From Malacoraja senta (Eukaryota): 64,000 nt of DNA. This document shows positions 1,665-63,335 of this stretch, piece after piece (positions within the stretch are counted from its first letter, which is position 1; the number at the start of each line of letters is the position of its first letter). A program made the position numbers and the translations under genes. The notes under the pieces are model-generated. The model did no database searches. It worked only from the letters and a program-made list of their open reading frames with translations, and was not told the DNA's origin. The stretch spans positions 22,322,001-22,386,000 of the forward strand of contig CM075987.1 of NCBI GenBank assembly GCA_038087875.1, read 5' to 3'.

Positions 1665-2622
1665 TCAAGATTCAAGATTCAAGAGAGTTTATTGTCACGT
1701 GTCCCTGATAGGACAATGAAATTCTTGCTTTGCTTCAGCACAACAGAACATAGTAGGCATTGACTACAAAACAGATCAGTGTGTCCATATACATAGATAC
1801 ATAGAAAATAGGTGCAGGAGTAGGCCATACGGCCCTTCGAGCCTGCACCGCCATTCAATATGATCATGGCTGATCATCCAACTCAGTATCCCGTACCTGC
1901 CTTCTCTCCATACCCCCTGACCCCTTTAGCCACAAGGGCCACATCTAACTCCCTCTTAAATATAGCCAATGAACTGGCCTCAACTACCCTCTGTGGCAGA
2001 GAGTTCCAGAGATTCACCACTCTCTGTATGAAAAAGTTTTTTCTCATCTCGGTCTTAAAGGATATCCCCCTTATCCTTAAGCTGTGACCCCTTGTCCTGG
2101 ACTTCCCCAACATCGGGAACAATCTTCCTGCATCTAGCCTGTCCAACCCCATAAGAATTTTGTAAGTTTCTATAAGATCCCTTCTCAATCTCCTAAATTC
2201 TAGCGAGTATAAGCCGAGTCTATCCAGTCTTTCTTCATATGAAAGTCCTGACATCCCAGGAATCAGTCTGGTGAACCTTCTCTGCACTCCCTCTATGACT
2301 ATAATGTCCTTCCTCAGATTTGGAGACCAAAACTGTACGCAATAATAAGGTAATATACCATTATATACGTATGTACACACATGAATAAATAAACTGATAA
2401 AGTGCAAATAACAGATAATGGGCTATTAATGTTCAGAGTTTTGTCCGAGCCAAGTTTAATAGCCTGATGGCTGTGGGGAAGTAGCTATTCCTGAACCTGG
2501 TCATTGCAGTCTTCAGGCTCCTGTACCTTCTACCTGAAGGTAGCAGGGAGATGAGTGTGTGGTCAGGATGGTGTGGGTCCTTGATGATACTGCCAGCCTT
2601 TTTGAGGCAGCGACTGCGATAG
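1665..2622 (-). mobile_element. Rex1/Babar-type LINE 3' fragment, interrupted by a CR1
   Basis: C-terminal peptide SRCLKKAGSIIKDPHHP..LLPSGRRYRSLKT..TRFRNSYFPTAIRLLN; (TTCAAGA)n tail at 1665-1684. Confidence 0.75.
1790..2343 (-). mobile_element. Young CR1 LINE, 5'-truncated
   Basis: ORF2 C-terminus YCVQFWSPNLRKDI..EGVQRRFTRLIPG..RRLRRDLIETYKI..TRGHSLRI..FFIQRVVNLWNSLP; short TATG-containing tail. Confidence 0.95.
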
Positions 2623-2836
2623 ATTGCTTGAAACAGTGTCCCAGTGATCAGGGTGATCTTGGAATGGTGCCACACTAGGGCCTTATGTTGCTCCCTCTGC
2701 AACAAGGTAAGTGAATACAATGCTTGAATCACAATAACAAGAAAAGACTCCTCGTTTCTTGTAAGATGCCTGTATCCAGAAATGGAAAAAAGTCATAAAT
2801 AATTCTTACTGGCTTTGTAAAACAGGTTTTTACCCT

Positions 2837-4000
2837 AGACACAAGGAACAGTAGATGCTGGTGTGCAAAAAAAAAGACACAAAGTGCTGGAGTAACTCAG
2901 TGGGTCAGGCAGCATCTCTGGAGAGACATGGATAGATGACGTTTCGGATCGGGACCTTTCTTCAAATTGATTGTAGTAGGGGAGAGAAAGCTGGAAGAGA
3001 AATGAGGACAGGACAAAGCCAGGCAAATAATAGGTGAGGGGGATTTGAATGGCAGATAGGCAGACAAAAGTTAGACAATAGGTGCAGGAGTAGACCATTC
3101 GGCCCTTCGAGCCAGCACTGCCATTCAATGTGATCATGGTTGATCTTCCACAATCAGTACCCCGTTCCTGCCTTCTCCCCATATCCCCTGACTCTGCTAT
3201 CTTTAAGAGCCCTATCTAGCTCTCTCTTGAAAGTATCCAGAGAACCTGCCTCCACCGCCCTCTGAGGCAGAGAATTCCACAGACTCACAACTCTCTGTGT
3301 GAAAAAGTGTTTCCTCATCTCCGTTCTAAATGGCTTACCCTTATTCTTAAACTGTGGCCCTTGGTTCTGGACTCCCCCAACATCGGGAACATATTTCCCG
3401 CCTCTAGCATGTCCAAACCCTTAATAATCTTATAAAAGTTAGAGATAAAAAGAAGACAAAAGGATGCAAGATAGGGAGAGGAGGGGTGGAAAGTGAAACC
3501 AGAGGAAAGGATATAGGTGCAAGGGGACCCTGGGAAGGGGAAAGGTAAAGGGTGCCACGATAGTGGGAGAAATGGGTATGCTTCAAGGGGGGGGGGGCAT
3601 AGAAGAGAGATGGGGGTGGGGGGGGGAAGGGATTTGTTGGTTAGTTACCTAAAATTGGAGAATTCAATGTCCATACCGTTAGGTTGTAGGCTACCCAAAC
3701 GGAATATGAAGGGCTGTTCCTCCAGTCTATGTGGCGTCTTTCAGGCAATGGAGGAGGCCCAAGACAGAAGATGCTTCTTTTCACACTTCTCCTCTTTTTC
3801 ACATTCCACCCTTCTCTCTCCTTACCTCACATCCTTTTGTTTTCTTTTCATCTCCAGCCTTTGTCAACCGATCACCCAATCAAACCCCCTCACCTATATC
3901 TTCAGTCTAAAGAAAGGCCCCTACCTGAAATGTCACCTATCCATGTTCTCCAGAGATGCTGCCTAATCTGCCGAGTTACTCCAACACTTTGTGTCAGATA
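2837..4000. mobile_element. Penelope-like element remnant with inverted end copies, interrupted by a CR1
   Basis: PLE end repeat at 2837-2965 with an inverted copy at 3900-3995; 3645-3765 on minus encodes a degraded GIY-YIG C-terminus (LEEQPFIFRLGSLQPNGMDIEFSNF). Confidence 0.7.
3076..3433 (-). mobile_element. CR1 LINE 3' fragment (second subfamily) with 10-bp TSD
   Basis: CR1 3' end; AAAAGTTAGA at 3066-3075 and 3434-3443. Confidence 0.9.
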
Positions 4001-22370: not shown

Positions 22371-23145
22371 ACATAGAACATAGATACATAGAAAATAGGT
22401 GCAGGAGTAGGCCATTCGGCCCTTCGAGCCTGCACCGCCATTCAATATGATCATGGCTGATCATCCAACTCAGTATCCCATACCTGCCTTCTCTCCATAC
22501 CCCCTGATCCCCTTAGCCACAAGGGCCACATCTAACTCCCTCTTAAATATAGCCAATGAACTGGCCTCAACTACCCTCTGTGGCAGAGAGTTCCAGAGAT
22601 TCACCACTCTCTGTGTGAAAAAGTTTTTCCTCATCTCGGTCTTAAAGGATTTCCCCCTTATCCTTAAGCTGTGACCCCTTGTCCTGGACTTCCCCAACAT
22701 CGGGAACAATCTTCCTGCATCTAGCCTGTCCAACCCCAATAAGAATTTGGTACGTTTCTATAAGATCCCCTCTCAATCTCCTAAATTCTAGCGAGTATAA
22801 GCCAAGTCTATCCAGTCTTTCTTCATATGAAAGTCCTGACATCCCAGGAATCAGTCTGGTGAACCTTCTCTGCACTCCCTCTATGGCTATAATGTCCTTC
22901 CTCAGATTTGGAGACCAAAACTGTACGCAATACTCCAGGTGTGGTCTCACCAAGACCCTGTACAACTGCAGTAGAACCTCCCTGCTCCTATACTCAAATC
23001 CTCTTGCTATGAAGGCCAACATACCATTCGCTTTCTTCACTGCCTGCTGCACCTGCATGCCTACTTTCAATGACTGGTGTACCATGACACCCAGGTCTCG
23101 CTGCATCTCCCCATTTCCTAATCGGCCACCATTTAGATAATAGTC
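22371..23145 (-). mobile_element. Young CR1, 5'-truncated, one frameshift near 22735
   Basis: ORFs 22642-23106 and 22470-22739 are consecutive CR1 ORF2 parts in different frames. Confidence 0.95.
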
Positions 23146-29501: not shown

Positions 29502-30246
29502 GAAACATAGAAACATAGAAAATAGGTGCAGGAGTAGGCCATTCGGCCCTTCGAGCCTGCACCGCCATTCGATATGATCATGGCTGATCATCCAACTCAG
29601 TATCCCATCCCTGCCTTCTCTCCATACCCCCTGATCCCTTTAGCCACAAGGGCCACATCTAACTCCCTCTTAAATATAGCCAATGAACTGGCCTCAACTA
29701 CCTTCTGTGGCAGAGAATTCCACAGATTCACCACTCTCTGTGTAAAAAATGATTTTCTCATCTCGGTCCTAAAAGACTTCCCTCTTATCCTTGAACTGTG
29801 ACCCCTAGTTCTGGACTTCCCCAACATCGGGAATAATCTTCCTGCATCTAGCCTGTCCAACCCCTTAAGAATTTTGTAAGTTTCTATAAGATCCCCCCTC
29901 AATCTTCTAAATTCTAGCATGTACAAGCCGAGCCTATCCAGTCTTTCTTCATATGAAAGTCCTGCCATCCCAGGAATCAGTCTGGCGAACCTTCTCTGTA
30001 CTCCCTCTATGGCAAGAATGTCTTTCCTCAGATTAGGAGACCAAAACTGTACGCAATACTCCAGGTGTGGTCTCACCAAGACCCTGTACAACTGCAGTAG
30101 AACCTCCCTGCTCTTATACTCAAATCCTTTTGCTATGAATGCTAACATACCATTCGCTTTCTTCACTGCCTGCTGTACCTGCATGCCTACTTTCAATGAC
30201 TGGTGTACCATGACACCCAGGTCTCGTTGCATCTCCCCTTTTCCTA
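29502..30246 (-). mobile_element. Young CR1, 5'-truncated, open ORF2 C-terminus
   Basis: About 215 aa uninterrupted CR1 ORF2 end; (GAAACATA)n tail. Confidence 0.95.
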
Positions 30247-31607
30247 TCTGTATTCTATAAGCTTGCCCGGGCAATGCCTTCCTTGAAATGTTTCCTGATG
30301 AGGGGATATTTCCTTTCATGGGGAAATTTAGAACTGGGACACTGTTTCAGAATATAGAACTTACCTATTCAAGAATCTTTTGAATTCTCTGCCCCATAGG
30401 CTGTCATTGGTTATATCCGAGGCTCAGATAGATTTTTGAGCTGCCTGAGGATCAGGCAGAAATTGAGGCCATGATATATTGAATAGCAGAGAGCGGATTC
30501 AAGGGCTAAGAGTGAATTTTTGATCCATAGATGCTGCCTGGCCTCCTGAGTATTTCCAACATATCCCCCTTATTTCAGATTTCAGGCAACTCTAGTGTTT
30601 ATCTCACCGGTCTAGTATTGTTTGTTTTTCTGCTTGTTCATCTCCTTTTGTTTGCAACACCTGCACCTATTTCTTATATTCTCATTGGATAGCACAGAGG
30701 AAACTGCACCCTTACTCACTCCCAGACTTATTAGCCTTCAGTGTGTTGAAAGATAGACATTAAAGGTGTTGATATCCAAACATTAAAAAATTCTGATTAA
30801 AGTGATGGAAAATGATAACTCTGTTTCCGGCTGCCGATACTTCCAGGGTTTTTCCAGGATTCCAGCAGTCTGCAGTGTTTCCAGGTCACTTTAAATGTTC
30901 TATTACAATAATGTAATTCAAGAGGCTTTCAGATTGGCATATCGATATGCAGGGAATGGAGGGATATGGATCACATCCAGGCACAGGAGGTTAGTTAACT
31001 TGGCAATATGTTCGCATGTACATTGTGGGCCGAAGGGCCTGTCCTTATGCTGTACTGTTCTCTGTTGTACTAATTCTCCCTCCCACTCTGACCTTCGTGT
31101 TTGTGGCCTATTGTATCAATTCAATGAAGCCTAACGTAAGCTCAAACAATAGCATTTCATCGTCTAGCTTGGCATATTATCTATATAAACAAAAGTCTCA
31201 TCTTGACCACTTCCTGTCTGCGCTGTATATTGATTATAGTAAGAAACGCTACCATATATCGCTATGATTTTTGGCCATCTAACTCCCAGCCCTCCTCCGC
31301 AGAGGAGGATTTTTCCGATCGATGAAAAATAAAAAGGTTATGAGTGTTTAAGAAATCTTGAGATCAGCTGATTGGTCCTCTTGCCTGTCAATCACCACGA
31401 TGAGGGTAACGCCCCTTCCGGGGGTGGGGGGGGGGGCAGGACAATAAAACCCCGGATGTCTGGACGTGAGTCTGTCACTCTGGAAGATAGCGAGGGAGAG
31501 TCCACAACTGTGATTCTAAGCTGTGAATCAACTGAACTGTGAGTCTGCAATGTACTTCCAATTAATGATTTGTTAACGCTTAATGACAATGCAATGAGTT
31601 GTTTGGC

Positions 31608-31736: not shown

Positions 31737-31938
31737 CGTGAGTGAACTGCCAGCCCACCAGCCCTGAGTGACTGAGCTGCCAGCCAACCAGCCCTTGGTG
31801 ACTGAGCTGCCAGCCCACCAGGCCTGAGTGACTGAGCTGCCAGGCCAACAGGCCTGAGTGACTGAGCTGCCAACCTACCAGGCCTGAGTGACTGAGCTGC
31901 CAGCCAACCAGGCCTGAGTGACTGAGCTGCCAGCCCAA
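31737..31938. repeat. 30-bp minisatellite, about 7 copies, inside Helitron
   Basis: CTGAGTGACTGAGCTGCCAGCCAACCAGGC units. Confidence 0.92.
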
Positions 31939-32784
31939 GAATCTATTCGGCCACAATGTCCATACTAGCCCTCTGGAAACCAGTCCCTTCGCCCCACAAC
32001 ACCCACACTAGCGCTCCAGAAAGCCCCCCCCACTGGCCACCAATATTGGAATTGGTGGAGAGGTGGCATATTGCGTTGGGAGATAAGCCCTCCCATGTGA
32101 ACATGGGACCCAACAGGTCCCATTTGGTCTAGTAGCCTTTAGTATCCAACATTCAATTCAACAATTTAAGATATACTGTTTTTCCCAGTTTTTATCAGAA
32201 CTAGTCATTTCTGATGAAAAATGATCAAGATGTAGCCTTAGCTCCATTTTTCTCTCAACCTAGATGCTGCCTTATCTGCTGAGTATTTCCAGCATTCCCA
32301 CTTCATTTCAGATTTCAGGGAACTTTATGTGTGTTATGGTGTTTACCGTGTTTACATATCTGTTGTGCTCAGTGATGGAAATTGGGGGGGGGGGGGGGTA
32401 CGCAGGGGGGGGGGGTTCCCCTAGTTTTCAGTTTCCAGTTTCCATCCTGTGCGTGAAGTCGCAGCTTTATCCTGCGCTACTTAATCCAAGGGCGAGCGAA
32501 GGAGCGGACAGACGGACGATGGCAACGATCATAGAGTGGAATAGATGACATTTCGGGTCGAGACCCTTCTTGAGACTGAGTCGGGGAAAGAGCAACAAGA
32601 GATATAGACGGTACTAAGGACAAATTAATGCCTATACCTCCCGTTTCTCTTTCCCTTGACTGTCAGTCTGAAAAAGGGTCTCGACCCGAAATGTCTCCTA
32701 TTACGCTCTATGATCGTTGCTTTCGTCCGTCTGTCCGCGCATTTGCTCGCTCTTGGTGCCGGCGCTTCTCCCCTCAGACTCCGA

Positions 32785-32817
<33 letters not shown>

Positions 32818-33339
32818 ACGTGAAGGATTACATCAAACGGGTCATGGCAGCTATTGAAAAAGTACCGAAATGGTAAGGGGGAAATTAAAAAAAAAAAAAC
32901 GAAGAAAATAGATGTTTAACAAAAAAAAGGGGGCCGTCGATCGTTCCGTGTCGGGGGGTGGGGGGCAGGGCCGGCCTTAAGCCGATTGGACCAATTGCTT
33001 ACAACTGGGGCCAGAGTTATCTATTCTTGGCTCAGGTAGATCTACCCCGGGTGGAGGGGGGAAAAAGGGGTGGAGAGAGAGTAGAGGGGTGGAGGGGGAA
33101 TGGAGAAGGGGAAGGTGGGTCGTTCCCTCACGGTCCCGGGGCTGCGCTCCCACCCCTCCAGTCGCTGTGCTTCACGCACACAGCCCCGGCTCCACCTCTC
33201 TCTCTCCCCGGGGAGACGCGGTGAACAATACAGGGAGAGCCGGGCCGGGCCGGGGGATGGAGCAACGTTTACAAACCTCGGCCTCAGCTTACACCCGTCC
33301 GCTCGCACCCCGGCATCTGCTCCCGCCGCCGGCCCGCTC

Positions 33340-33680
33340 CCTCCCTTCTCTCCTTCCCTTCCCTCCCTCCCTTCCCTTCTTCCCTCCCTCCCTTCTCTCC
33401 TTCCCTCCTTCCTTCCTCTCTCTCTTTTCCCTTCTCTCCTTCCCTCCCTCCCTTCTCTCCTTCCCTCCTTCCTTCCTCTCTCTCTTTTCCCTTCTCTCCT
33501 TTCCTCCCTCCCTTCTTTCTCTCCTTCCTCTATCTCTTTTCCCTTCTCTCCTTCCCTCCCTCCCTTCTTTCTCTCCTTCCCTCCCTCCCTTCCCTTCTTC
33601 CCTCCCTCCCTTCTCTCCTTCCCTTCTTTCTCTCCTTCCCTCCCTCCCTTCTCTTCCTCCCTCCTCTCCTTCCCTCCCAC
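33340..33680. repeat. Polypyrimidine (CT-rich) tract with about 60-bp periodicity
   Basis: Essentially only C/T for about 340 bp; TCTCTTTTCCCTTCTCTCCTT recurs at 33421, 33481 and about 33533. Confidence 0.9.
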
Positions 33681-33699
33681 ACATAAGGCACAGACAACT

Positions 33700-33700
33700 A

Positions 33701-33732
<32 letters not shown>

Positions 33733-33840
33733 ACACACACAGACACACACACACACCAACACACACTCACACAGACACACACACGCGCGCGCACACACAC
33801 ACTCACACCCACACCCCTACACCCCCACACCCACACACCC
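33700..33840. repeat. (CA)n-rich microsatellite
   Basis: Imperfect CA repeats. Confidence 0.9.
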
Positions 33841-34424
33841 AAAGTTAGGATGGGGCTGAAGCCCAAAATGTTATGCCTGCACTGGTTTTTCGCCAATAGT
33901 TATTGGTTTTCCAGGATCTAGTTAATTTTTATTTATTTTTTCATTTCACAATCACTTAAACAAGTGGTATTGTAACTATCTACTTTTCAGAGGTGATGTA
34001 CACATTTTGTTTGTTACTTGTAGGCTTACATGTATGCAATTTTATATTAAAATGTAACTTAGATCTGTTTGGTCTATTAACTCGCAGGCTCTTTTTAAGC
34101 GCACATTTTGATTACTTTCCATTCAACCATAGAGATATAAGGTCTATAATAGACTTTATTTGTATTTCTATGATTCTACAGACCTTGGCTGGGAACCTGG
34201 GGCTCACCAAAATTGTTCCCAATTGGGCCCCGCACCTCCTAAGGCCGGCCCTGGGGGCGGGGGGGGGATGGCTTGAGTGGGTGCAAGATTTTCTGGAGCT
34301 CCTTCCAAATGGCAATATTTTGTATGTTCAAAGTAAAAAATGAGGACTAAGCAAGGATATCAGAATGATCGCCTGCAGCTGAGAAAAAAAAGATGATTTG
34401 TGCATGAAGAAGCCATGATCAAAG

Positions 34425-34540
34425 CAAAGATACTAGAGCGGAGACGGAAGCCGGTTACGGAAATGGGGCTGAAGATTACCCATGACCCTACTACGGCTTT
34501 TTCGTCGAGTGGACTATCTTGCTCCGCTATAGGATCTTTG
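34425..34540. mobile_element. 116-bp TIR element (CAAAGAT family), no TSD
   Basis: CAAAGATACTAGAGCGGAG ... CTCCGCTATAGGATCTTTG (17/19 inverted match). Confidence 0.75.
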
Positions 34541-34930
34541 GTTTCCAGTCTCCATGAGATGGAGAGTGTGGAGGAAAGTGGCGCTGTAAGGGCAGTCCAC
34601 GTCTTACACCAGCTCATTGGAACTTTTCCCAATTCCATAATGACTGTCTAAGAACTTGGCCCTCATCAGACCTGGCGTCTCCCCGCTGTAAATGGAGTTC
34701 ACCCCCTGGATGCTCAACTCGTAGACCACCTGCTCCTTCCTGAAGCGGATATCAAACAGCTGTAAACCGCTGGCGGGACTGCGGCGGAACGCGAACTCCC
34801 AGTCAAAGTAGCGAACGTGGTTGTTTACAACGTGGTATCTTGGTCCACGTGGCTCGAACTGGAGGGGGCCGTAGGTTTGAAACTTCTGGCGAGGTCTCAG
34901 CGAGGCGTAGTTGGGATCCGAATCCGACCT
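34541..34930 (-). pseudogene. Copper-containing amine oxidase (AOC2/AOC3-like) gene fragment, 130 codons, one internal stop
   Basis: RSDSDPNYASLRPRQKFQTYGPLQFEPRGPRYHVVNNHVRYFDWEFAFRRSPASGLQLFDIRFRKEQVVYELSIQGVNSIYSGETPGLMRAKFLDSHYGIGKSSNELV*DVDCPYSATFLHTLHLMETGN; matches the vertebrate AOC catalytic-domain start (PLQF.P.GPR, FD.RF..E...YE.S.Q, DCPY.AT); TAA at 34604-34606. Confidence 0.9.
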
Positions 34931-35476
34931 TTAGATCTCTCTCACTCTCTCACCCTCTCTCTCACCCTCTCGCCTCGGCATTCCCGGAATCATTTGCCGT
35001 TTTGCGGGGACGGCTGCATCTGCGGTTCCTTCCTGTTGGGGTGGGGGTGGGGGGAACCCTGGCCCGTGGCGGCTCCTGGTCCGTTCCCTCTGGGGGTGCC
35101 GCCTGACCCGCTGAGTTCCTCCAGCACTCTGTGTTTTTTGTTTGGCTCCAGAGTTGAAGGTGGACATGGGGTGGCTAAGCGGGATGGGCAGCGGCTCTGG
35201 GGAGTGGGTGGCGTTTCAGGTGAGACCCTTCTGCAGACAATCACAAGTACTCTCACCGACGAGAGTTCAGTTCAGTCTAAAGAAGGGTCTTCTCTCCAGA
35301 GTCGCTGCCTGTCCCGCTGAGTTACTCCAGCTTTATGTCTAACTTCAATTTCAAGAGTTAAATAAAAACACACAGAGTGCTGGAGGAACTCAGCGGGCTA
35401 GGCGGCATCTGTGGAGGAAATGGATTAGGAATTGTTTCGGGCCAGGGTTCTTCTTCAATAGGAAGGAACTGCAGAT

Positions 35477-35508
35477 CAAAGATAGTAGAGCGGATACTAG
35501 TATCTTTG
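35477..35508. mobile_element. 32-bp minimal TIR element (CAAAGAT family) with perfect 8-bp TSD
   Basis: CAAAGATAGTAGAGCGGATACTAGTATCTTTG flanked by CTGCAGAT (35469-35476, 35509-35516). Confidence 0.85.
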
Positions 35509-35781
35509 CTGCAGATCAGGCATGATATTCTTCCGATTTAAATCGTAATTCCGATTTTATTGTTTTCCTATTTTCAATTATTTGTGCCCGATTATTTGGC
35601 GACGTATCAACCGCTGTCTCTAAGAGAGTTGCGTCCAATCACCGACCAGCTTCTCTTAAAATTGTGTCCAATCACATAAAGCGCTGGTCACTCGGCGGCC
35701 ACTCAGACACAGTCTCTAGGGGCCTTTTGATCAATCACCGACCTGCTTCCCTCACCGAAGCAGATGATGGCTGCAGCCAAC

Positions 35782-35812
<31 letters not shown>

Positions 35813-36319
35813 TGCAAGAAAGCAGCTATGACATAATACACAATATACTATATTATAAATACACAATAAACAAGTTATGCATTCTTGTACTCTTACATGG
35901 GTATGACCGCACATAAAAAATCCCCCCCCCCTTCCTTCCCAACCTCAGCCTCACGGACCTTAGAGTACCCCTAGTTCCTAAAACCCATTTCCATCACTGG
36001 TTGTGCTGCTGCAAGTAAGAGTATAATTGTTCAGTGTCAGGACATATAACAAAACACTCTTGACTCTATCCCACAAGTCTAGTATTGCTGGTTTTTCTGC
36101 TTGTTCATCTTTATTGTTTGTTTTCCAGCCTTTCACTAGTCTTGTTATTTTCTTCAATGGTAATGTCTGAAGCAGATGGTCATAGCAGAGAAAGTCAGAT
36201 AACATTAGATAACATTAAAATCCAAAGATAACGTAGAGATTTCACTTCTGCAGATGTGTTTCCCACTCTGTGTCTGCTTGGGAGCAGGATCCTATGGAAC
36301 TACACAATCCCAAGTAATA

Positions 36320-37110: not shown

Positions 37111-37493
37111 TGTAGAAACTTACAAAATTCTTAAGGGGTTGGACAGGCTAGATGCAGGAAGATTGTTCCCGATGTTGGGGAAGTCCAGAACAAGGGGTCA
37201 CAGTTTAAGGATAAAGGGGAAATCTTTTAGGACTGAGATGAGAAAAACATTTTTTACACAGAGAGTGGTGAATCTCTGGAACTCTCTGCCACATAATGTA
37301 GTTGAGGCCAGTTCATTGGCTATATTTAAGAGGGAGTTAGATGTGGCCCTTGTGGCTAAAGGGATCAGGGGGTATGGAGAGAAAGCAGGTACAGGATACT
37401 GAGTTGGATGATCAGCCATGATCATATTGAATGGCGGTGCAGGCTCGAAGGGCCGAATGGCCTACTCCTGCACCTATTTTCTATGTTTCTATG
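37111..37493 (+). mobile_element. Young CR1 3' fragment
   Basis: ETYKILKGLDRLDAGRLFPMLGKSRTRGH...GYGEKAGTGY. Confidence 0.95.
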
Positions 37494-51275: not shown

Positions 51276-53070
51276 CGGTACGGTGACACAGAGGTAGAGT
51301 TGCCGCCTTACAGCGCTTGTAGCGCCGGAGACCCAGGTTCGATCCCGACTACGGGTGCTGACCGTACGGAGTTGGTACGTTCTCCCCGTGACCTGCGTGG
51401 GTTTTCTTCGAGATCTTCAGTTTCCTCCCACACTCCAAAGATGTACAGGTATGTAGGTAAGCTAGCTTGGTAAATGTAAAAAAAAACTGTCCCTAATACA
51501 TAGATACATAGATACATAGAAAATAGGTGCAGGAGTAGGCCATTCGGCCCTTCGAGCCTGCACCACCATTCAATACGATCATGGCTGATCATCCAACTCA
51601 GTATCCCGTACCTGCCTTCTCTCCATACCCCCTGATCCCTTTAGCCACAAGGGCCACATCTAATTCCTTCTTAAATATAGCCAATGAACTGGCCTCAACT
51701 ACCCTCTGTGGCAGAGAGTTCCAGAGATTCACCACTCTCTGTGTGAAAAAGTTTTTCCTCATCTCGGTCCTAAAGGATTTCCCCCTTATCCTTAAGCTGT
51801 GACCCCTTGTCCTGGACTTCCCCAACATCGGGAACAATCTTCCTGCATCTAGCCTGTCCAACCCCATAAGAATCTTGTACGTTTCTATAAGATCCCCTCT
51901 CAATCTCCTAAATTCTAGCGAGTATAAGCCAAGTCTATCCAGTCTTTCTTCATATGAAAGTCCTGACATCCCAGGAATCAGTCTGGTGAACCTTCTCTGC
52001 ACTCCCTCTATGGCTATAATGTCCTTCCTCAGATTTGGAGACCAAAACTGTACGCAATACTCCAGGTGTGGTCTCACCAAGACCCTGTACAACTGCAGTA
52101 GAACCTCGCTGCTCCTATACTCAAATCCTCTTGCTATGAAGGCCAACATACCGTTCGCTTTCTTCACTGCCTGCTGCACCTGCATGCCTACTTTCAATGA
52201 CTGGTGTACCATGACACCCAGGTCTCGCTGCATCTCCCCATTTCCTAATCGGCCACCATTTAGATAATAGTCTGCCTTCCCGTTTTTGCTACCAAAGTGG
52301 ATAACCTCACATTTATCCACATTATACTGCATCTGCCAAACATTTGCCCACTCACCCAGCCTATCCAAGTCACCTTGCAGTCTCCTAGCATCCTCCTCAC
52401 AGCTAACACTGCCCCCCAGCTTAGTGTCATCCGCAAACTTGGAGATGTTGCTTTCAATTCCCTCGTCCAGATCATTAATATAAATTGTAAATAGCTGGGG
52501 TCCCAGCACTGAGCCTTGCGGTACCCCACTAGTCACTGCCTGCCATTGTGAAAAGGACCCGTTTACTCCTACTCTTTGCTTCCTGTTTGCCAGCCAGTTC
52601 TCTATCCACATCAATACTGAACCCCCAATACCGTGTGATTTAAGTTTGTATCCTAATCTCTTATGTGGTACCTTGTCGAAAGCCTTCTGAAAGTCCAGAT
52701 ACAACACATCCACTGGTTCTCCCCTATCCACTCTACTAGTTACATCCTCGAAAAATTCTATAAGATTCGTCAGACACGATTTACCTTTCGTAAATCCATG
52801 CTGACTTTGTCCAATGATTTCACCACTTTCCAAATGTGCTGCTATCCCATCTTTAATAACTGACTCTAGCAGTTTCCCCACTACCGATGTTAGACTAACT
52901 GGTCTGTAATTCCCCGTTTTCTCTCTCCCTCCCTTCTTAAAAAGTGGGGTTACGTTTGCTACCCTCCAATGTGTGTAGGATAGTGATAATATGCGGGGGT
53001 CACTGGTCGGCACAGATCCGGTGGGTCGAAGGGCCTGTTCCCACGCTGTATCTCTAAACTAAACTAAACT
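51276..53070 (+). mobile_element. HE1-like SINE split by a CR1 (51276-51496 and 52970-53070)
   Basis: Head/core end at TGTCCCTA and resume at GTGTGTAGGATAGTG, contiguous in intact copies. Confidence 0.85.
51497..52969 (-). mobile_element. Young CR1 LINE, 1.47 kb, uninterrupted RT domain (5'-truncated, no endonuclease)
   Basis: WRVANVTPLFKKG, NYRPVSLTS, QHGFTKGKSC, LDFQKAFDKVPH, GVPQGSVLGP, FADD; no stops over about 457 codons. Confidence 0.97.
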
Positions 53071-56526: not shown

Positions 56527-57422
56527 GTGTGAAGAGGATGCTAGGAGACTGCAAGGTGACTTGGATAGGCTGGGTGAGTGGGCAAATGTTTGGCAGATGC
56601 AGTATAATGTGGATAAATGTGAGGTTATCCACTTTGGTGGCAAAAACAGGAAAGCAGACTATTATCTAAATGGTGGCCGATTAGGAAAAGGGGAGATGCA
56701 ACGAGACCTGGGTGTCATGGTACACCAGTCATTGAAAGTAGGCATGCAGGTGCAGCAGGCAGTGAAAAAAGCGAATGGTATGTTAGCTTTCATAGCAAAA
56801 GGATTTGAGTATAGGAGCAGGGAGGTTCTACTGCAGTTGTACAGGGTCTTGGTGAGACCACACCTGGAGTATTGCGTACAGTTTTGGTCTCCAAATCTGA
56901 GGAAGGACATTATAGCCATAGAGGGAGTGCAGAGAAGGTTCACCAGACTGATTCCTGGGATGTCAGGACTTTCATATGAAGAAAGACTGGATAGACTCGG
57001 CTTATACTCGCTAGAATTTAGGAGATTGAGAGGGGATCTTATAGAAACTTACAAAATTCTTATGGGGTTGGACAGGCTAGATGCAGGAAGATTGTTCACG
57101 ATGTTGGGGAAGTCCAGGACAAGGGGTCACAGCTTAAGGATAAGGGGGAAATCCTTTAAGACCGAGATGAGAACAAACTTTTTCACACAGAGAGTGGTGA
57201 ATCTCTGGAACTCTCTGCCACAGAGGGTAGTTGAGGCCAGTTCATTGGCTATATTTAAGAGGGAGTTAGATGTGGCCCTTGTGGCTAAAGGGATCAGGGG
57301 GTATGGAGAGAAGGCAGGTACGGGATACTGAGTTGGATGATCAGCCATGATCATATTGAATGGCGGTGCAGGCTCGAAGGGCCGAATGGCCTACTCCTGC
57401 ACCTATTTTCTATGTATCTATG
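56527..57422 (+). mobile_element. Young CR1, 5'-truncated, open ORF2 C-terminus
   Basis: 256-aa ORF 56561-57331 nearly identical to the 51497-52969 copy. Confidence 0.96.
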
Positions 57423-57424
57423 AA

Positions 57425-57760
57425 AGGTGATTGATTCAGGAGGCTGATGGTAGTGGGGAAGATGCTGTTCTTATGTCTGGACGTCTGAGGTTTCAAGCTC
57501 CTGAAGCCTTTCCAAGAAGGTAGAAAAAAGAGAAAGGGAATGGCCTGGGTGACAAGTATCGTTGTTGATACTTTGTGTCTTCCTGATGCAACGTATCATG
57601 AAGGTGGACTGGATGGAAGGAAGTGATGAGCCTGATAATGAATGGGCTGTGTTCATCACTGTTTATGGGTTCAGGTGCACAGGAGCAGAGTAGTTGCCCT
57701 ACCAGGCTGAGATGCATCCTCAGGATGCTTTCCATAGTGCCTCTGTAGAATGGAGATGGT
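57425..57760 (-). mobile_element. Old Rex1/Babar-type fragment
   Basis: RCIRKTQSINNDTCHPGHSL; GGCTGATGGTAGTGGGGAAGATGCTGTTCTT. Confidence 0.6.
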
Positions 57761-63135: not shown

Positions 63136-63335
63136 NNNNNNNNNNNNNNNNNNNNNNNNNNNNNNNNNNNNNNNNNNNNNNNNNNNNNNNNNNNNNNNNN
63201 NNNNNNNNNNNNNNNNNNNNNNNNNNNNNNNNNNNNNNNNNNNNNNNNNNNNNNNNNNNNNNNNNNNNNNNNNNNNNNNNNNNNNNNNNNNNNNNNNNNN
63301 NNNNNNNNNNNNNNNNNNNNNNNNNNNNNNNNNNN
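63136..63335. other. Assembly gap (200 N)
   Basis: Run of N. Confidence 1.

Follow-up and report, generated by a model that had tools for sequence, protein, structure and literature searches.

The 64-kb window analyzed here (the whole stretch C11:22322001-22386000, to which all positions without a contig label refer) holds a 3.6-kb terminal inverted repeat (TIR) element at 32370-35999. With high confidence, we regard it as an old, fixed-looking copy of a multicopy, non-autonomous cut-and-paste transposon family, most likely hAT, that carries fragments of two host genes, a copper amine oxidase (AOC) and BCL7A. The family was traced through the 1.94 Gb of the genome by its ends and by both pieces of cargo, and the structure of the window copy is that of the assembly and of a near-identical inverted duplicate on the same contig, C11.

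Genome-wide copies of the element and its cargo

The ends of the element were read directly from the sequence and are as a preliminary description of this DNA, made without database searches, had given them. The inverted repeats are perfect over 13 bp, with CAGTGATGGAAAT occupying 32370-32382 and its reverse complement occupying 35987-35999, and a perfect 8-bp target site duplication flanks the pair; the exact 13-mer has no further occurrence in the 64-kb window. The repeat of the family as a whole is 16 bp, CAGTGATGGAAATGGG, from which the left end of the window copy departs by one mismatch at base 14. Copy numbers here and below are candidate counts, of which only the best candidates were scored, and they include some assembly duplicates. 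The left 119 nt had at least 383 candidates in the genome, with 33 of the 40 scored beginning at query base 8-10, the first repeat base; the right 128 nt had at least 1,144, with 38 of the 40 scored ending at query base 120-126 and 16 stopping exactly on the last repeat base. The family boundaries fall exactly at the terminal repeats.

The cargo is just as widely dispersed. Searching with the AOC segment as DNA (34560-34935) gave 144 candidates, and all 40 that were scored were 94-100% identical over at least 373 of the 376 bases. The Pfam genome search for the same domain gave 148 candidates and 102 scored matches, 99 of which cover profile positions 2-115 only; the remaining three are an AOC gene on contig C4404 and two matches at a paralogue on C10. 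The BCL_N search returned at least 367 candidates, with all 150 scored matches above the cut-off.

We fetched 10 kb around 20 AOC hits, which left 18 independent transposable element (TE) loci after the parental gene and the duplicate of the window copy were set aside. Terminal repeats were read in 20 loci overall, and 13 of the 18 independent loci had both. Among these two-ended copies, ten had perfect 8-bp duplications, all different (GAGCCAAC, AAGAAAAT, TTCTCGAC, AGACCAAA, CCTACAAT, CTCTGGAT, GAAGCAAC, CTTTGATG, AATATAAT and CACATGAC), two had duplications matching at 7 of 8 bases, and one was unmatched. Together with the window copy and two short derivatives described below, perfect and mutually different duplications were found in 13 copies. 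The edges of the AOC cargo are equal within 6 bases at either side in all other fetched TE loci that hold it (the weakest, L013, at 87%), and this constancy points to a single capture with many transpositions after it. One chimeric structure, with a distinct duplication at each site as in multicopy Pack-TIRs, thus recurs around the genome.

These observations answer a question that the preliminary description had left open. It had proposed a mobile element but allowed that the AOC fragment was a one-off insertion into a resident element or had arrived after the element inserted, and a single copy indeed cannot decide between such an event and mobile cargo. The same 388 bp, with the same boundaries and within the same backbone, at independent loci refutes the one-off reading, as do the ten full copies with perfect, different duplications; we consider it practically negligible. 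Matching both ends and the AOC interior against the genome, as had been suggested, yielded many copies with the same TIRs, different duplications and the same cargo, and the possibility that no other copy would carry the cargo is countered by at least 144-148 AOC candidate loci. The AOC cargo therefore belongs to the family and travelled with the element.

Segmental duplication or assembly redundancy, rather than transposition, could also multiply such a structure, and it does explain one copy: that at C11:22440128-22443777 is a duplicate of the window copy, with the same target duplication and flanks 99.85% identical over 10 kb in inverted orientation. Three hit pairs on different contigs with identical scores in the Pfam AOC search likewise speak for redundancy and against transposition. 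For all other copies, however, homology ends at the repeat bases, and 12 further copies all show a perfect 8-bp duplication that differs from those of the others, so that duplication as the origin of the family is very improbable.

Layout of the element

The window copy and its target site are laid out as follows.

32362-32369, no strand: left 8-bp target site duplication, GTTGTGCT, read directly and the same as 36000-36007
32370-32485, plus strand: left TIR and subterminal region; genome matches start at the first repeat base
32486-32756, no strand: palindromic module with 94-nt arms, 87% complementary, from an inverted-repeat scan
32719-32965, plus strand: BCL7A cargo (5' untranslated region [UTR], coding exon 1 and start of intron 1), from Pfam BCL_N and homology to the gene on C4
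32966-34253, no strand: nested 1,288-bp TIR element with a 14-bp repeat, CAGGGCCGGCCTTA, seen as a gap in short-form copies and from its ends
34254-34550, no strand: backbone segment, found in all 11 aligned copies at a median distance of 4.7% from the consensus
34551-34938, minus strand: AOC cargo, 388 bp, 128 codons with two in-frame stops, from Pfam PF01179
35054-35450, no strand: second inverted-repeat module with 86-nt arms, 79% complementary, from an inverted-repeat scan; family backbone
35629-35642 and 35662-35675, plus strand: two 14-nt direct repeats, each with CCAAT, from a repeat scan
35830-35999, plus strand: right subterminal region and TIR (35987-35999); genome matches stop at the repeat
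36000-36007, no strand: right 8-bp target site duplication, GTTGTGCT, read directly

No transposase match was found among the 33 open frames of at least 50 aa inside the element, in agreement with the preliminary description. The only Pfam matches among these frames were Cu_amine_oxid and, under its cut-off, BCL_N. An Rfam search found no tRNA, and five matches to miRNA hairpins, all far under the gathering scores, were taken as chance.

The claim of an empty site that restores a continuous Rex1-type tail was not confirmed: the sole paralogue within the window, 30528-30602, aligns with the left flank and stops before the junction. That flank includes a common interspersed repeat of 235 bp (31900-32134), which adjoins tandem repeats of 30 bp at 31750-31900. 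A similar sequence (88-91%) interrupts three other copies at element position 1955 (L038:4753-4990, L003:1722-1960 and L004:672-914).

An exon-internal piece of a copper amine oxidase gene

The AOC cargo of the window copy matches Pfam PF01179 (Cu_amine_oxid) over profile positions 3-88 with an E value of 5.3e-19, which bears out the earlier recognition of a host copper amine oxidase fragment in the element and sets its extent at 128 codons on the minus strand. The best host counterpart is on C4404, where positions 315-702 are identical to the window cargo at 371 of 388 bases, without gaps and with edges that are sharp within the exon. In the 3.8 kb of C4404 that were read (L031, C4404:1-3823), no TE sequence was found besides the stretch shared with the AOC cargo. 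The contig starts inside the AOC gene. One frame (736-1611) encodes a signal-anchor-like N terminus and the N-terminal domains, and a second (35-826), of 264 aa, corresponds to catalytic-domain positions 3-191.

A paralogue or second copy of this gene lies at C10:18126565-18127232, with 97% identity to C4404 over the adjacent 280 bp. A majority consensus built from 22 TE copies has 7 differences from C4404 in 388 bases and no gaps, and against the C10 paralogue it has 12 differences in 385 bases plus five gap columns; where C4404 and C10 differ, the TE consensus agrees with C4404 at every site. By sequence comparison, then, the parent-type gene of the cargo is that on C4404, and the fragment comes from within an exon of this AOC2/3-type gene. 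The C4404 protein shares 93% identity with the Leucoraja erinacea "retina-specific copper amine oxidase", 72-76% with the corresponding batoid proteins from other species and 64-72% with shark proteins. From these identities, the parent is of the AOC2/3 type and the host is a skate-like batoid, consistent with the cartilaginous fish that the preliminary description had supposed. A search for public proteins resembling the TE-borne AOC frame (108-347 aa) found none among 61 candidates at an E value of 1e-5 or better and thus gave no evidence from other species.

Both genomic AOC copies are disrupted in the assembly. The C4404 gene has a frame break between the N-terminal frame (736-1611) and the catalytic frame (35-826), and the C10 copy (L053, C10:18126480-18126960) contains several indels of 1-2 bp as well as stops. 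These could be two duplicates in decay, or indel errors of the assembly at these places.

A second cargo: the first exon of BCL7A

The element carries a second host fragment that the preliminary description had overlooked, namely exon 1 of BCL7A. About 290 bp long, this cargo runs from the 5' UTR through the ATG, 31 codons and the splice donor into intron 1, of which it holds about 105 bp. A (CA)n expansion has removed the ATG and the first 14 codons from the window copy, leaving the remnant KDYIKRVMAAIEKVPKW at 32823-32873 and the GT donor at 32873-32874, and the Pfam BCL_N match reaches only 8e-4. In the short copy L030, of which 34 frames of at least 40 aa were scanned, it reaches 1.2e-6 and exceeds the cut-off. 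Intact copies have the ATG and 31 codons followed by GTAAGG, and their peptide is identical at 30 of 30 positions to BCL7A residues 1-30 of solved BAF-complex structures (E value, 4.6e-13). The BCL7A piece was also present in 15 of the 17 AOC-bearing loci tested, in addition to the window copy.

The true BCL7A gene has six exons. Exons 2-6, mapped with residues 32-210 of a skate BCL7A protein, lie at C4:21758240-21771137, and exon 1 lies 6 kb upstream on the same strand, at C4:21752075. A 551-bp segment at this exon 1 (L056) matches the TE copies from position 195 to about 480-491 with 81-92% identity. In the shared span, C4:21751974-21752270, about 92 bp of 5' UTR precede the coding exon with its donor, and about 105 bp of intron 1 follow. 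A paralogue on C6 matches the TE at 73-76% over 101 coding bases only. Since the homology to the C4 gene covers UTR, exon and intron, and that to the C6 paralogue only coding bases, we take BCL7A on C4 to be the parent. For both cargoes, then, the captured DNA lies between the TIRs and the parental copies lie elsewhere in the genome, not linked to the transposon.

Internal modules, derivatives and the order of events

The preliminary description counted three nested TIR elements. Three inverted-repeat modules do exist, yet only that at 32966-34253 proved to be a later insertion. It interrupts a G-run of the BCL7A-intron-derived part, and its contents are CT-rich and (CA)n low-complexity DNA. 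It is present in a subfamily (L028, L040, L041, L043, L044 and L045) and missing at exactly that point in the short-form copies L030, L033, L034, L035 and L039; because those copies lack it, it inserted later. Immediately beyond it, the first ~20 bp of the backbone segment 34254-34550 continue the BCL7A intron homology (the gene match extends up to L056 position ~491).

The palindrome at 32486-32756, by comparison, in part duplicates the BCL7A cargo edge in inverted orientation. Both arms have the start of the captured 5' UTR as their outer 24-38 bp, inverted in the left arm, and positions 195-218/232 of the BCL7A gene segment L056 also match the TE copies on the minus strand. Its inner part contains the motif GGGTCGAGACCCTTCT, which recurs at 35222-35238 and 35272-35290. 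This fold-back of the cargo edge was possibly made at capture, and its form would be expected from strand or fork switching. The third module, 35054-35450, is common to all family members examined, including the short derivatives L054 and L055. The CCAAT-containing segment had been correctly noticed and consists of the two CCAAT 14-mers at 35629-35675.

Copies differ in length in several ways. Short forms of 2.2-2.5 kb (L030, L035 and L039) comprise element positions 1-596 and 1884-3630. In longer copies, the extra DNA is a nested long terminal repeat (LTR) retrotransposon or long interspersed nuclear element (LINE). Two elements of 1.3-1.4 kb (L054 and L055), with the perfect duplications GTTACAAG and GAATAGAA, join the left 240-260 bp to the right part; because one of the two keeps the last 72 bp of the AOC cargo, it is an internal deletion of the composite element. 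One copy contains a nested 909-bp fold-back (L029:4138-5045) with two weak THAP-like frames on opposite strands. These frames (E value, 0.0038) fall under the Pfam cut-off, are unrelated to the P-like locus L058 discussed below and were rejected.

This arrangement suggests the following order of events. Before the main burst, the element acquired about 290 bp of BCL7A, on its plus strand, and, also before the burst, the 388-bp exon-internal AOC2/3-type piece, on its minus strand. Template switching during repair or replication of the element is the likely route of capture. The composite transposed many times, with a new 8-bp duplication at each site, and was probably moved in trans by a transposase encoded elsewhere. 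One sublineage gained the nested TIR element, and internally deleted derivatives arose.

Neutral decay of the AOC cargo

Individual copies differ from the consensus by 0.8-3.6% in the AOC cargo, and the medians for the other segments are 2.6-4.7%. We considered the lower divergence of the cargo as a sign of selection and set this aside, as the ranges overlap with those of the other segments and the codon positions are flat: substitutions number 80, 75 and 65 at first, second and third positions. They comprise 61 synonymous and 156 non-synonymous changes and three stops, with an expected synonymous share of 21.6%. CpG transitions account for 91 of the 220 substitutions (41%). This pattern is neutral decay of a methylated AOC cargo; nothing in it indicates selection on a protein.

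Superfamily assignment

hAT elements have 5' ends of the type YARNG. The repeats of the skate family are 13-16 bp and start with CAGTG, its duplications are 8 bp, and the target sites are biased: position 7 is A in 11 of the 13 copies (p = 3e-5 for this single position), and position 6 is a purine in all 13. hAT elements are described as having 8-bp duplications and repeats of 10-25 bp, with the target nTnnnnAn in the Ac family (PMC8961557). The 8-bp duplication in the 13 perfect copies and the short repeat CAGTGATGGAAATGGG both agree with this. On its ends, duplication length and target bias, the family is probably hAT and non-autonomous. Of the earlier hAT assignment, the end sequence and the 8-bp duplication fit; a matching transposase was not found.

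Several observations weigh against this assignment and the history built on it. Position 2 of the target is T in only 5 of 13 copies, so that the hAT target pattern is half present. No transposase with the ends of the family was found in long copies, in loci with hAT domains or in loci that share the right end: the hAT dimerization domain (PF05699) has 1,648 candidates in the genome, and none of the 150 scored lay near the 80 listed family-end matches; the long copies hold only nested LTR and LINE insertions. The capture mechanism, furthermore, is read from structure alone. Finally, P-type elements share both the 8-bp duplication and the 13-bp repeat length, and the genome has a P-like transposase family. 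Four loci considered as an autonomous partner (L011, L012, L014 and L015) were rejected, since they share only the last 150-210 bp of the right end and have no common interior.

The P-type elements merit separate consideration. The family could be a non-autonomous member of the P superfamily, mobilized by the abundant THAP9/P-like transposase of this genome, in which case capture, amplification and decay would be unchanged. P elements make 8-bp duplications, and the zebrafish P-type element Pdre2 has duplications of this length together with 13-bp repeats, CATACCTGTCAAC (bioRxiv 10.1101/2024.03.22.586318). Our PF12017 P-transposase search gave at least 241 candidate loci, with 124 of the 150 scored at an E value of 0.001 or below, and many P-like loci have open frames of 600-790 aa with THAP matches about 1 kb upstream. 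The family repeat begins with CAGTG, however, and that of Pdre2 with CATAC (bioRxiv 10.1101/2024.03.22.586318). No listed P-like locus lies near any listed family end. An intact P-like locus (L058) was read for 851 bp upstream of its THAP exon and showed no match to the repeat at up to three mismatches, with the end of that element lying further out; this is a weak result, because homology within the P-like family passes the start of the 851-bp stretch. P targets are GC-rich, so the AT-leaning duplications seen here (38% GC versus 45% in the window, and A at position 7) fit hAT better. Taken together, a P-type origin is unlikely, although a serious rival, and hAT is the probable assignment that we retain.

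The P-like/THAP9-like transposase family is large. Examples are at C1818:5337-6523, C2:174700483 and C1:237361267, and its members have near-identical scores and lie mostly on small contigs. It looks young because so many of its open frames span 600-790 aa.

Comparison with known gene-capturing transposons

Capture of host gene pieces by cut-and-paste transposons is textbook knowledge in plants and has looked rare and low-copy in animals. Pack-MULEs have long repeats and 9-11-bp duplications, and Helitrons are rolling-circle elements without TIRs or target duplications. The skate family is of the Pack-TIR kind, and what sets it apart is a scale greater by a hundred-fold or more, cargo from two genes and its host lineage.

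The closest comparison is with the animal Pack-TIRs of Tan et al. 2021 (PMC8277862), which number 370 in 100 genomes, 208 of them hAT. Only four of the 370 are multicopy, three from frog and one from alligator, and none was found in the elephant shark (calMil1), the one cartilaginous fish of that survey (PMC8277862). Like the frog example Pack-hAT-N8_XT of Xenopus tropicalis, found on three chromosomes, the skate family is a non-autonomous TIR element with a short host gene piece, an unlinked parent and distinct duplications (PMC8277862). Unlike the multicopy cases presented there, it has at least 144 candidates of one cargo and at least 367 of the other, joins pieces of two unrelated genes in one element and includes a sublineage with a nested element (PMC8277862). 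The same authors proposed gap filling for single-copy Pack-TIRs, and fork switching followed by transposition for multicopy ones (PMC8277862).

As in plant Pack-MULEs and Pack-TYPE elements (PMC5861414, PMC8903248), which hold fragments from one host gene or several, host DNA has been amplified by a non-autonomous element, mostly as non-coding passengers. Those Mutator-superfamily Pack-MULEs are nonetheless a different class, given the 13-16-bp repeats, the 8-bp duplications and the vertebrate host of the skate family. In Pyrenophora and its relatives, a hAT-type element likewise amplified captured coding DNA to many copies, by transduplication of histone H3-like genes (PMC6710886, PMC3538342), but there the host is a fungus and the cargo a near-complete gene, in contrast to an exon-internal piece and a first exon with its donor. 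Vespertilionid bat Helitrons offer a vertebrate parallel, with host exon and promoter fragments at high copy number (PMC4224331). Unlike Helitrons, the skate family has TIRs and target duplications. In the literature searched, we found no report of such a family in cartilaginous fishes, or of AOC or BCL7 cargo, and the backbone may already be named in repeat libraries such as Repbase.

Implications

A vertebrate TIR element can thus hold host fragments from two unrelated sources and multiply them at least a hundred-fold. The parent genes, the composite element, the nested-insertion sublineage, the deletion derivatives and the fold-back at the cargo edge form a natural series for studies of capture. 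Genome annotation is affected too: roughly one hundred hits to "amine oxidase" and several hundred to "BCL7" represent transposon cargo here and not genes.

With hundreds of dispersed exons that combine a start codon and a splice donor, exon shuffling becomes testable. As a speculation, and one we consider improbable, the family would act as a mobile first exon, with intact copies supplying the BCL7A 5' UTR, ATG, 31 codons and a consensus donor, such that some copies may initiate host transcripts or be joined to them and yield chimeric N termini. If so, read-through from the BCL7A-derived end would give antisense AOC RNA, and the family could feed small-RNA or antisense control of both parent genes, as proposed for plant Pack-MULEs.

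Twenty listed sequencing runs labeled with nine organisms, none of them an RNA run, hold 5-47% of the 31-mers sampled from 32200-36200. These shares, which were not used as evidence, hint that several related species have parts of the family.

Other features of the window and contig

The duplicate of the window copy on C11 is part of a larger arrangement. Window positions 28042-63135 are repeated in inverted orientation at C11:22413014-22448099, at least 35 kb long, about 28 kb further along and 99.85-100% identical. The element copy within this inverted repeat has the same target duplication and differs from the window copy by five mismatches and eight gap positions over 3,652 columns. One arm ends exactly at a 200-N scaffold gap (63136-63335), and the arrangement looks like a misplaced haplotig or an assembly fold-back; a real palindrome is the alternative.

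The 20 largest frames outside the element were scanned, and none resembled a host gene. A 486-aa reverse transcriptase frame (RVT_1; E value, 1.9e-32) lies on the minus strand at 51598-53058. Additionally, a repeat of about 381 bp occurs six times in the window with about 95% identity, at 1792-2172, 22379-22760, 29506-29886, 37113-37493, 51507-51887 and 57039-57427.

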